Shown here: positions 44,493 through 50,856 of the stretch, piece after piece | Numbering within the stretch: the first letter of the stretch is position 1 | Layout of the letters: every line of letters starts with the position of its first letter | Source of the DNA: a virus | Lineage: Duplodnaviria > Heunggongvirae > Uroviricota > Caudoviricetes | Length of the DNA: 64,000 nt | Direction: 5' to 3' (one strand) | IMG/VR virus record: IMGVR_UViG_3300028887_000066 | Location: 96,001-160,000 of that record | Position numbers and translations under genes: made by a program | Notes under the pieces: model-generated | Told to the model about the DNA's origin: nothing | The model's input: only the letters and a program-made list of their open reading frames with translations | The model's database searches: none

Positions 44493-45278
44493 ATGATAAA
44501 GGACGAATTAGAAAAGCAAAGAAAACTGACCAATACCAACCCCACGGAAAAACAGAAAAAGGCAGAAAACTATAAAATGGGGCATATACGAATTAACGGT
44601 TTTCAAATAAGCATAGAGAATCCAAAAGGAAGCTATAGAAGAGGAAAGGATTCAAACGGCAAAGAATGGAAAACCCTGATGCATCATGATTATGGCTATT
44701 TTACAAAAACAGTCGGAAAGGACGGTGATGCTATTGATGTGTTCATTGGGCCGCATTATGATTCCACAAAGATTTTTGCCGTTGATCAAAAATTCGGTAA
44801 TAAATTTGATGAAACGAAAGTAATGTTCTGTTTCAATAACATCGATGAGGCGAAGAAAGGATACCTCTCAAACTATGAAAAAGATTGGAAGGGATTTTGG
44901 AAAATAACAGAAACAGATATTGATACATTTAAAAAATGGCTATATGATGGACACAGGCAGTATAAGCCATTTTTCCAATATAAAGAAATAAAAAAGCAGA
45001 AACCAAATATGAAAGAGATTAAATTAACTGAAAGCAAACTTCAGGAACTCATAAGAGAATCTATTGCAGAAGTCGTAAACCGTAACGACTACGATAACGA
45101 CAAAGCATACCAATATGACAGAGTTATGGATGTTCAAAATGCTAAGTCTGAGGTTGCAGATGCAATAAAAGCAGTTATAGAAAAATACCAATTGAAAAAT
45201 GCTGAAATCTACAGGGTATTAGAAACAATGATAAAATATTTCTGTCCAGCACGGACAAATGGTATGATACAACAGTAA
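44493..45278 (+). CDS. Inorganic pyrophosphatase-like domain (polyvalent-protein type) with C-terminal putative head-targeting helix
   Basis: NYKMGH..ISIENPKGSYRRG..HDYGYF..GKDGDAIDVFIG..FDETKVM; then IKLTESKLQELIRESIAE. Confidence 0.75.
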   Translation: MIKDELEKQRKLTNTNPTEKQKKAENYKMGHIRINGFQISIENPKGSYRRGKDSNGKEWKTLMHHDYGYFTKTVGKDGDAIDVFIGPHYDSTKIFAVDQKFGNKFDETKVMFCFNNIDEAKKGYLSNYEKDWKGFWKITETDIDTFKKWLYDGHRQYKPFFQYKEIKKQKPNMKEIKLTESKLQELIRESIAEVVNRNDYDNDKAYQYDRVMDVQNAKSEVADAIKAVIEKYQLKNAEIYRVLETMIKYFCPARTNGMIQQ

Positions 45279-46002: not shown

Positions 46003-46075
46003 GGGGGAGAAGCTAACTAAGTAGAAGCGCTGGACTGAAAATCCAGAGGAGTTGGAGCGTTACCAACCTCCCCCA
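46003..46075 (+). tRNA. tRNA-Phe(GAA), atypical T-loop
   Basis: GGGGGAG/CTCCCCC acceptor; ctgga-ctGAAaa-tccag; T-loop AGCGTTA. Confidence 0.85.
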
Positions 46076-46330: not shown

Positions 46331-46349
46331 AAAAAAATTAATCCCGTTT

Positions 46350-46382
46350 TTGGCCAATTCAAAAAATAGACGTATATTTGCA
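46350..46382 (+). promoter_or_regulatory. Bacteroidetes-type promoter
   Basis: TTTG...TATATTTGC. Confidence 0.7.
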
Positions 46383-46409
46383 TTGTAATTCAAAAACAGT
46401 CAAAAGAAC

Positions 46410-46613
46410 GACGGGATAGCTCAAACGGTAGAGCGCAATCGACGTTATTCTCCGTGACGATGGAATAAAGAATGACCGAAACATGATTGGGGCTGAGAAA
46501 GCAGCGATCTTATTACGTATAGATACGAAACTGTCGTGTATTCTAGAGCGCACAGCAGATGTAGTTGAAAGAAAATTTGAAAGTTATGGGAGGTTCGAAT
46601 CCTTGCCCCGTTG
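46410..46613 (+). ncRNA. tRNA-like RNA with expanded anticodon loop and variable region (about 205 nt)
   Basis: Acceptor GACGGGA/CCCCGTT; D arm TAGCTCAAACGGTAGAGC; T arm GGTTCGAATCC. Confidence 0.7.
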
Positions 46614-46651
46614 ACAATTTAACAAAATTTAGAATAGAAAGGGAAAATTTT

Positions 46652-46777
46652 ATGATTATCAAATGCCCAAAGTGCCAACAGGATGTTAAAATTGACATCG
46701 CACACGCAGTAGATGAGAATGGTGAGGTGTTTATGTGTCCTCATTGTGGTTATCATTTCAGATATACAGAACGATGA
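46652..46777 (+). CDS. Zinc-ribbon protein
   Basis: CPKC..CPHC. Confidence 0.7.
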   Translation: MIIKCPKCQQDVKIDIAHAVDENGEVFMCPHCGYHFRYTER

Positions 46778-47337
46778 AAGGCAGTTCTAACACAAAACAG
46801 TTCAAGAAATTCCAAATAAGATGGGCTGAAAAGTTAGGATATGAAAATGACCCATATCTTATTAGATGGACATTTATATTCTTTGGCTATTCATTAAGAA
46901 TCCACCATTGGATTAAATCAGATGATAACAGGTTTTTCCACGATCACAGTGCCGATTTACTAAGTATTGTGTTAAAGGGTCGGTATTACAATGTGAAGCC
47001 TATTTATCCTGACAAAAATCCTACCGATATTGTTGAAAAAACGTATTTTGAGGATGGCGACGGCTTTTCATTCGGAGGAGAAGGAAAAAATGAAAAATGG
47101 TGTTATGTAGAGGGTATTTTCAATTCATTGCACAATTTCCTTCATATGAATCGCTCTATATGGTTTTCTAAAGCCGAGGACAGACATTATCTAAGTATAC
47201 CGAAAGAAGGTGCGTGGACATTGATGTTCGAAGGAAAACCAAGACATAAGTGGGGATTTTATGTGAATGGGCATAAGTGGAGACCGTTAAGATATTTCCA
47301 TAAATACGGAATAAAACAGGACAAAAATTATCAATAA
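46774..47337 (+). CDS. Cupin-like protein
   Basis: LRIHHWIKSDD..FHDH..H..AWTLMF.G..KWGFY. Confidence 0.65.
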   Translation: MKGSSNTKQFKKFQIRWAEKLGYENDPYLIRWTFIFFGYSLRIHHWIKSDDNRFFHDHSADLLSIVLKGRYYNVKPIYPDKNPTDIVEKTYFEDGDGFSFGGEGKNEKWCYVEGIFNSLHNFLHMNRSIWFSKAEDRHYLSIPKEGAWTLMFEGKPRHKWGFYVNGHKWRPLRYFHKYGIKQDKNYQ

Positions 47338-50452: not shown

Positions 50453-50851
50453 GGGTCTGTTTTGGAATTGATACCAAGAATCGGGCGGTATATAAGCATG
50501 CAGGGTGAGTGGTCATTGCCCTTAAAATCATTGATCAGACAAATTAAATGGTAACTATGAGTATGCTCTCGCTGCTTAATCGAAGTACAGTAGATTAATC
50601 GCTTAATCCTTACACAAGGTGTTCGGACGAGACATCACCCCAAGGTAAATTCACGAAGCCGAGGAAATGGTGGTGCAGTAAATTCGGGAATAGTCACTCA
50701 AAAGCCCTATTTTGGTGATGAAACTTTAAGGGATAAGGGACGAATATGTTGTTCAGGTCGTATTTGTCCACGAATAAATCATTCTGAACTAAGCATGTAG
50801 AAAGTATATGGTTCACTTGAGTAGACGACGGTTCAACCCCGTCCAGATCCA
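50453..50851 (+). ncRNA. ssrA: tmRNA; tag (A)GNYEYALAA
   Basis: GGGTCTG/CAGATCC acceptor with G3:U70; T arm; tag ORF ggt aac tat gag tat gct ctc gct gct taa. Confidence 0.95.
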
Positions 50852-50856
50852 CAAAC

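Follow-up and report, generated by a model that had tools for sequence, protein, structure and literature searches.

A tRNA-shaped RNA gene at the head of a phage tRNA array

The stretch of DNA analysed here (64,000 nt, hereafter the window) covers bases 96001–160000 of an IMG/VR record of 356,121 bp (37% GC), rated complete, from a phage of gut or rumen. The phage genome contains 31 tRNA genes, including one of the amber-suppressor type, as well as a tmRNA. At the head of an array of such genes in the window stands an RNA gene that is shaped like a tRNA but is far longer than its neighbours, followed on the same strand by a zinc-ribbon ORF and by the gene for a cupin protein (Table 1).

Table 1. 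Positions of the tRNA-shaped RNA gene, its structural elements and its neighbours (window numbering unless a locus is named).
Feature	Position	Strand	Remarks
Bacteroidota-type promoter	46349..46380	+	TTTG (-33) 46349-52, 20 nt, TATATTTG (-7) 46373-80
tRNA-shaped RNA gene	46409-46614	+	about 205 nt; heads 17-gene tRNA/tmRNA array
Acceptor stem, 5' strand CGACGGG	46409..46415	+	C1 invariant; pairs with 46607-46613
D arm GCTC / AAACGGTA / GAGC	46419..46434	+	GG in loop; 100% paired
'Anticodon' stem, 5' strand CAATC	46436..46440	+	100% paired, two pairs compensatory
Insert 1	46441..46476	+	GA, helix I1, helix I2 with tip CC(A/G)TGACGATGG; I1 covaries
Loop remnant CGAAACAT	46477..46484	+	conserved AAC-A-U (Val-type anticodon plus A37, U38)
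'Anticodon' stem, 3' strand GATTG	46485..46489	+	pairs with 46436-46440
Insert 2, variable-position domain	46490..46588	+	about 95 nt, four helices; covariation and single-sequence folds
Hairpin V1	46492-46502	+	loop GAGAA; purine-rich GAGAA/GUGAA across homologues
Closing helix V2	46503-05 / 46583-85	+	closing helix together with V3
Hairpin V4	46531-38 / 46551-58	+	apical, UCUAGA in loop
Palindromic hexamer TCTAGA	46542..46547	+	V4 apex loop; kept in 22/23 homologues
Conserved GTAGTT	46561-66	+	inside insert 2
T arm GGAGG / TTCGAAT / CCTTG	46589..46605	+	95% paired, loop invariant
Acceptor stem, 3' strand CCCGTTG, then A73, C74	46607..46615	+	U71, G72, A73 invariant
Zinc-ribbon ORF, 41 aa	46652..46777	+	between RNA and cupin gene; weak Pfam matches, all below cut-off
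Cupin gene, 187 aa, phage-specific	46774..47337	+	predicted co-transcribed partner of RNA
Interrupted tRNA genes of relatives	L010:1534-11080, L011:1466-12238		e.g. L010:5235-5410, L010:9265-9422, L011:4419-4597

ARAGORN, run with or without its intron mode, called no tRNA at 46409–46614, and searches with Rfam, at the gathering threshold as well as at E ≤ 10, returned nothing there, whether for the tRNA model RF00005, YrlA, group I introns or tmRNA, while the same runs detected all 17 normal tRNAs of the window together with the tmRNA. The original prediction had held that the RNA was not a tmRNA and had proposed an Infernal search of Rfam for YrlA and introns; indeed the only tmRNA lies at 50453–50854, RF00023 has no match at the RNA, and the proposed search likewise gave none. 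We found no matches with blastn against 50,697 phage records and no other copies in the phage's own genome. As the fold of the single sequence is not exceptional (z = -1.2), the case for the RNA depends on comparison with its relatives.

Some other features of the genome may be mentioned here. The tRNA-Phe gene (GAA) at 46003–46075 (+) has an aberrant T arm (GGAGCGUUACC loop region), scoring 50.2 bits with Rfam and being missed by ARAGORN. The tRNA with a CUA anticodon, i.e. of the amber-suppressor type, lies outside the window (G000:C1:253584–253656) and hints at partial TAG recoding in the phage; a tRNA with this anticodon also occurs in the relatives L010, L011, L018, L019 and L021. A 261-residue protein encoded at 44493–45278 (+) has an 'InPase' domain (PF18823, E 1e-49), which in PHROGs forms part of giant virion and anti-restriction proteins.

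Conservation and covariation in related phages

Using the 187-residue downstream protein as query, we obtained 47 related viral loci, in four of which the cupin gene was immediately preceded by a full-length copy of the RNA. Early DNA patterns gave either no matches (an exact 28-mer) or chance matches only (TGACGATGG..ACATGA), but a structured DNA pattern yielded 24 metagenome contigs, mostly from rumen and gut samples, which were confirmed by nhmmer. Removal of duplicates left 23 distinct RNA sequences (alignment A3).

The proposed structure, comprising 58 pairs, was counted on a plain MAFFT alignment, with controls in which the 3' partners were slid by one to three columns. Pairs were formed in 86.1% of the cells across the 23 homologues, compared to 41–50% in the slid controls, although the cell counts are not independent events since the homologues come from related phages. 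The covariation score was 0.309 as opposed to 0.08–0.10 after sliding, a value reached in none of 500 shuffles, and 30 of the 58 pairs showed compensatory changes on both sides. Pairing amounted to 99% in the acceptor stem, 100% in both the D and the 'anticodon' stems and 95% in the T stem; nine different acceptor-stem sequences occur among the 23, so that the homologues are not one recent clone. Within the first insert all five counted pairs of helix I1 covaried, a count that understates its support because the window and its near twin L188 are shifted by one column at this helix, while helix I2 is nearly invariable, so that covariation is silent on it. The second insert had 2, 2, 4 and 10 pairs with changes on both sides in V1, V2, V3 and V4, respectively, with part of V3, like I2, being supported by little variation; its layout was reproduced by single-sequence folds in most members.

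These results show that window positions 46409–46614 (+) encode a real, conserved structured RNA and not a decayed gene. The tRNA shape with acceptor stem, D arm and T arm, the CAATC/GATTG stem and the two large inserted domains, with a variable region of about 95 nt, had all been called from the window alone, and each is retained in the 23 homologues with compensatory changes. The 5' end of the RNA is C46409 (forming C1:G72), one base upstream of the earlier start. A tRNA pseudogene broken by junk insertions, to which the lack of calls by any tRNA finder could have pointed, is hardly credible: in addition to the compensatory changes, the insert motifs are invariant across the 23 homologues while their cupin genes diverge by as much as about 30%, and the promoter is conserved. 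Decay had initially been tied to inserts without conservation, and here their motifs are conserved and their helices covary.

The tRNA frame

The frame is close to that of a canonical tRNA with regard to acceptor, D and T arms, but it lacks a 7-nt anticodon loop with U33 and has a length that the tRNA models do not accept. The acceptor 5' strand is linked to the D arm by A-U-A, the extra A between acceptor and D stems being a feature of the family. Read as RNA, the D arm is GCUC-AAACGGUA-GAGC, followed by a G and then CAAUC, and its second stem pair changes from C-G to U-A in nine sequences. The nucleotides of the tRNA elbow are kept, with GG in the D loop and UUCGAAU in the T loop, whereas the T stem has a one-base irregularity in the subgroup to which the window belongs. 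CAAUC and GAUUG are separated by 44 nt, and about 99 nt lie from GAUUG to the T arm. All 17 tRNAs of the window end in N73 followed by C, and the A73-C74 end of the RNA is the same, which suggests the same 3' maturation with CCA completion.

The two inserts

Insert 1 is 36 nt long and begins directly after nucleotide 31. Its helix I1, GTTATTC/GAATGAC (46444–50 / 46470–76), is followed by an asymmetric internal loop and then by helix I2, TCCGT/ATGGA, with GACG as its loop. The tip of 12 nt, CC(A/G)UGACGAUGG at 46452–46463, is invariant in 23/23 homologues. The inner hairpin described earlier (ttattc/gaataa) turned out to be an alternative specific to the window, I1 and I2 being the conserved pairings. 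Of the anticodon loop, the 3' side is still recognisable as YGA(A)ACAU; among the 23 homologues ACA never varies and the A and U on either side of it hardly do. In the window this remnant reads GAAACAU, with A33 in place of U33. The view that the RNA has no anticodon is thus right in that there is no decoding loop, but not in that the loop keeps AAC-A-U as a Val-type remnant. Between the inserts there is an exon-like segment of 5 bp and 3 nt, and with both inserts deleted the loop would still have 8 nt and no U33.

The tip at 46452–46463 itself (A/G-U-GAC-G-A) resembles a second Val-type anticodon loop, with U33, GAC, R37 and A38, placed at the end of the lengthened arm, yet it is closed into a loop of 4 to 6 nt. 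Three other identities for this region were considered and rejected. A hammerhead (UGACGA...GAAAC) was dismissed because the UGACGA tip lies inside the covarying I1 and there is no way to form a stem II. A tmRNA-like mini-ORF (M-T-M-E/G-stop) starting from AUGACGAUGG is broken in frame by 1-nt indels among the homologues. Finally, CAATC/GATTG does not represent a P1-like intron–exon pairing, no complementary strand being found before the T arm in any homologue.

The internal loops of insert 2 are A-rich and contain GAAAC and GUAGUU. The hexamer in the V4 loop, TCTAGA, occurs only four times in the genome, where CTAG is about ten times rarer than expected (40 against 402); that it is nevertheless kept argues for strong selection for the exact loop. 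GATC is also scarce genome-wide, about twofold (481 versus 1073), and the scarcity of both tetramers is consistent with pressure from host restriction systems. A nested tRNA inside the variable domain was ruled out, with only about 16 nt from V4 to the closing strand and neither a D nor an anticodon arm.

The promoter and the linked cupin gene

Upstream of the RNA lies TTTG-N20-TATATTTG, which we take to be a promoter of the Bacteroidota -33/-7 type. Of 22 homologues, 17 have the motif TTTGG...TAnnTTTGCA at a distance of 12–25 nt before the RNA, and four of the five that lack it directly follow another tRNA. The idea that the gene has its own host-type promoter is thereby upheld in the Bacteroidota sense; a sigma-70 scan gave only a weak match.

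In all homologous loci with sufficient flanking sequence, the cupin gene lies downstream of the RNA in the same orientation, with a spacer usually of 12–50 nt (range 12 to about 180 nt), and at the shortest spacers of 12–25 nt there is no room for a separate cupin promoter. The promoter of the RNA would thus drive RNA and cupin gene together. The cupin protein, nearly confined to viruses, had no sequence matches in Pfam, NCBIfam or the PDB and carries a weak PHROG label, 'cysteine dioxygenase'. Its AF2 model (pLDDT 84.5) has a generic cupin fold with TM scores of 0.3–0.43 to thiol dioxygenases, DMSP lyases and HppE. Among the invariant residues are H56-x-H58, H138 and many basic ones; the modelled fold gives no hint of RNA binding. 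The zinc-ribbon ORF lies between RNA and cupin gene only in the window genome and its near twin L188; in a few other homologous loci it is found elsewhere, adjoining the far end of the cupin gene in L192. In four loci (L168:1614–1800, L176, L187 and L171) a conserved element of about 170 nt (…AGTCACA…GTAATGGGAAACGGTGTTTGAGAAG…) is located between RNA and cupin gene.

A structured RNA directly upstream of one gene, sharing one promoter with it at spacers down to 12 nt, could also act in cis as a leader of the cupin mRNA, its tRNA-like fold being a signal for processing or stability, or an operator for the cupin or for another tRNA-binding protein. Such arrangements exist, the tufB operon giving a tRNA–mRNA co-transcript and the thrS leader being a tRNA-mimic operator. 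However, conservation of the full acceptor stem, A73-C74 and the elbow matches that of true tRNAs, so that the RNA would be expected to be set free by RNase P and 3' processing, and the spacer varies widely, with the zinc-ribbon ORF intervening in the window genome. Moreover, the RNA is situated inside a tRNA array in four loci, and some relatives have it either downstream of the cupin gene or about 0.3–3 kb away. We therefore consider a leader function improbable.

A wider family of tRNA-Val-like genes

A covariance model built from A3, as had been suggested at the outset, was applied to the other cupin-related loci and recovered tRNA-shaped RNAs of 130–230 nt near the cupin gene in almost all of them. 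A signature of C1:G72, R2:U71, A73 and NAC-A-U, where NAC is AAC, UAC, GAC or CAC, is common to about 20 further lineages, all with canonical D and T arms; NAC-A-U, partly read by eye, immediately precedes the anticodon stem's 3' strand. The insert sequences differ between lineages and the two insertion sites are the same. Some lineages (L022, L030, L032 and L045) carry an insert at the first site alone, their variable loop being a normal one of 5 nt, and in L022, L032 and L030 this single insert follows nucleotide 31 or 32 of an otherwise perfect tRNA-Val cloverleaf. In more distant cupin loci, odd tRNA-Val-like genes of normal size directly precede the start codon, with loops of 7 or 8 nt such as AGAACAU, UGAACAU or UGAAACAU; such normal-size orthologues at the same locus are found in L015, L025 and L023. 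Judged by these features, the RNA lineage is derived from tRNA-Val, and even its short form is unlikely to decode. A further expansion topology, the third, was seen in a 92-nt member (L017:4207–4298) with an extra hairpin (GCAC-UGUAACAU-GUGC) between the D and the anticodon-like arms.

Palindromic hexamers recur in the insert loops of the family. These include UAGCUA (L010, L011, L012, L027, L034, L039 and L048), UGCGCA (L006 and L009, and in L010 by MFE fold only), UUGCAA (L012, L030 and L047, with the L006 hexamer outside any scored hairpin), UGAUCA (L032 and L048, with the L022 hexamer outside any scored hairpin), UGUACA (L016) and UCUAGA (the window type and L011). Counting stems of at least 5 bp and palindromes with at least two G/C, with the T loop excluded, we found them in 13 of 23 RNAs and in 18 hairpins, compared to 3.8 ± 1.9 and 4.2 ± 2.1, respectively, in 300 dinucleotide shuffles (maxima 12 and 13). 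Between the sister lineages L010 and L011, the palindrome in the corresponding variable-domain hairpin differs. Loop palindromes that change between lineages resemble kissing-loop dimerisation sites and are the pattern expected from selection for self-complementarity.

L010 and L011 also contain many ordinary tRNA genes (Asn, Tyr, Ser, Arg, Ile, Val and suppressor) with anticodon-loop inserts of 20–190 nt, found as matches of 99–189 nt to the Rfam tRNA model and by the intron mode of ARAGORN. In one group of these introns the sequence, which follows anticodon base 35, starts with AUAC(A/G)G and includes a hairpin with the loop ACCGAAAC, another shares GGAAA-N4-CAGCAA, and several of the inserts hold T-arm-like hairpins (GUUCGAAUC) or a whole cloverleaf.

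A proposed tRNA mimic or a possible interrupted tRNA gene

Our preferred reading, to which we assign a probability of roughly 45%, is that the RNA is an unspliced and non-decoding mimic of tRNA-Val, which undergoes tRNA-like maturation, may be charged, may dimerise and works together with the cupin protein. It keeps the elbow and acceptor end of a tRNA, including the family-specific C1:G72, R2:U71 and A73. Its anticodon arm extends into an irregular hairpin of about 17 bp that ends in an invariant tip, and at the class II variable-arm site there is a domain of about 95 nt made up of four helices. An L-shaped tRNA tolerates additions at either site, and the two combined would rule out decoding on the ribosome. 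Excision probably proceeds as for a tRNA, with RNase P cutting at C1, 3' trimming after A73-C74 and CCA completion; the suggestion that the ends of the RNA invite such processing agrees with the conserved acceptor stem and A73-C74. In E. coli the main ValRS identity elements are AAC-A-U and A73, and because both are kept here it is plausible that ValRS could charge the RNA with valine; no ValRS gene was found in the phage. Two molecules could form a dimer by kissing of their UCUAGA loops, against which it counts that such a kiss has only two G-C pairs. As a tRNA mimic paired with a cupin metalloprotein, the RNA may serve as substrate or carrier for the cupin, or as a decoy for a host tRNA-binding factor. 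That the most conserved stretches, i.e. the tip (23/23) and UCUAGA (22/23), are found inside the inserts fits a role in the mature RNA.

As the main alternative, the gene could be an interrupted tRNA-Val-like gene, in which one or both inserts are 'enigmatic' introns of the kind reported from Lak phages (PMC6784885); the product would then measure about 80 nt and resemble the short orthologues. Removal would occur through a small self-splicing fold, whose core the conserved insert motifs could form, or through cleavage followed by joining with the Rnl2-like ligase that the phage genome encodes or with the RtcB ligase of the host. The interrupted tRNA genes of L010 and L011 speak for this possibility, since their inserts presumably must be removed and a splicing route would therefore exist in the clade. 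The single inserts of L022, L032 and L030 within otherwise perfect cloverleaves also do so, and the normal-size orthologues at the same locus look like a case of intron presence and absence. Deleting insert 1 after nucleotide 31, furthermore, recreates the short-orthologue loops UGAAACAU or UGAACAU.

Several observations nevertheless make splicing less likely than the mimic in our view. Two inserts would require two splicing events only 8 nt apart. No group I core was detected with Rfam at either the gathering threshold or E ≤ 10, the latter without any RF00028 match, and two inserts of 36 and about 95 nt are far below known core sizes; the original prediction, which saw no group I or II core, thus stands as far as Rfam can detect one. 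A bulge-helix-bulge was not seen by eye, the junctions being of 1–2 nt (5') and 7–8 nt (3') rather than 3/4/3. Both RtcB (PF01139) and the splicing endonuclease (PF01974) are absent from the complete phage genome and from its relative G002; in Bacteroides thetaiotaomicron, a possible host type used as control, RtcB was present and the endonuclease absent. ARAGORN in intron mode found no other interrupted tRNA gene in the phage's own genome. The spliced product, with an 8-nt loop and no U33, would not be a normal decoder either, and the inserts are located exactly where an L-shaped tRNA tolerates additions while holding the most conserved bases of the RNA. What probability remains beyond the mimic, the intron, the leader and the pseudogene we leave to something not considered here.

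A bolder form of the mimic reading would make the RNA the founding member of a class of 'ornate tRNA-scaffold' RNAs, chargeable by ValRS, excluded from the ribosome, self-associating through palindromic kissing loops and forming an RNP with a cupin metalloenzyme. We regard this as doubtful; if true, the particle would carry out tRNA-dependent chemistry or act as a trap for a host factor that targets tRNA. More generally, an unspliced RNA would be a viral tRNA mimic of a new kind, equipped with extra domains, and a spliced one would imply a tRNA splicing route new to bacteria or phages.

Comparison with known systems

The RNA family appears to be previously undescribed, although tRNA-derived mimic RNAs as a kind are known already. 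With class II tRNAs and tRNA-Val the RNA shares acceptor, D and T arms, the elbow and an extra domain at the position of the variable arm, and its 3' end is as in the neighbouring tRNAs. A35, C36 and A73 of the RNA match the ValRS identity set of E. coli, the organism from which the rules used here are taken. It differs in that its variable domain has about 95 nt and four helices instead of at most about 21 nt in real tRNAs, in that a long hairpin without U33 replaces the anticodon loop and in having the extra A between acceptor and D stems. The phage's own tRNA-Val has A1:U72, whereas the RNA has C1:G72 and R2:U71.

YrlA (RF02553) is likewise a noncoding mimic of the tRNA elbow, some examples being encoded by phages, and like the RNA it is probably handled by tRNA enzymes. 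The kinship with YrlA or Y RNAs that had been suggested did not find support, however, as there is no RF02553 match, the ends form a 7-bp acceptor stem and not a Ro-binding stem, and the phage genome has no Ro/TROVE gene (PF05731).

Among viral RNAs, the valylatable tRNA-like structures of plant viruses (TYMV type) also combine ValRS-type identity features with a non-decoding fold. They form the 3' terminus of an RNA genome and have a pseudoknot in the acceptor arm, whereas the present RNA is encoded as a separate gene by a DNA phage, its acceptor stem is normal and two domains are added to it. The ornate multimeric ROOL and GOLLD RNAs, encoded by phages near tRNA genes, similarly have elaborate conserved folds without an assigned function, but are 500–800 nt long compared to 205 nt here, where in addition a tRNA frame is present and Rfam gives no match. 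A conserved self-complementary hexamer in a hairpin loop, UCUAGA in the V4 loop of 22/23 homologues, is what characterises a kissing loop, and as in the HIV-1 DIS it could mediate self-association. The likeness to valylatable viral tRNA-like structures and to ornate phage RNAs next to tRNA genes is one of analogy only.

The closest known counterparts are the unexplained oversized tRNA genes of the Lak phages. In these megaphages of Prevotella, tRNAs are reported to contain conserved enigmatic introns, one of which is itself tRNA-like (Devoto et al. 2019, PMC6784885). The RNA agrees with them in being an oversized tRNA-shaped gene of a huge phage of gut Bacteroidota with a highly conserved anticodon-loop insert outside Rfam, and relatives of the window phage show inserts in many tRNA genes, some of them tRNA-like themselves. 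In contrast to the Lak introns, however, the RNA has two inserts and not one, their removal restores no canonical anticodon loop, they contain covarying helices and invariant loops, and the gene is linked to a cupin. Of the large tRNA arrays found in huge phages of gut and rumen Bacteroidota, the odd members have so far been noted only as 'enigmatic introns'; with C1:G72, R2:U71, A73, NAC-A-U, two insertion sites, palindromes and a linked cupin, the family described here, of about 45 members, provides a signature by which such genes can be searched for.
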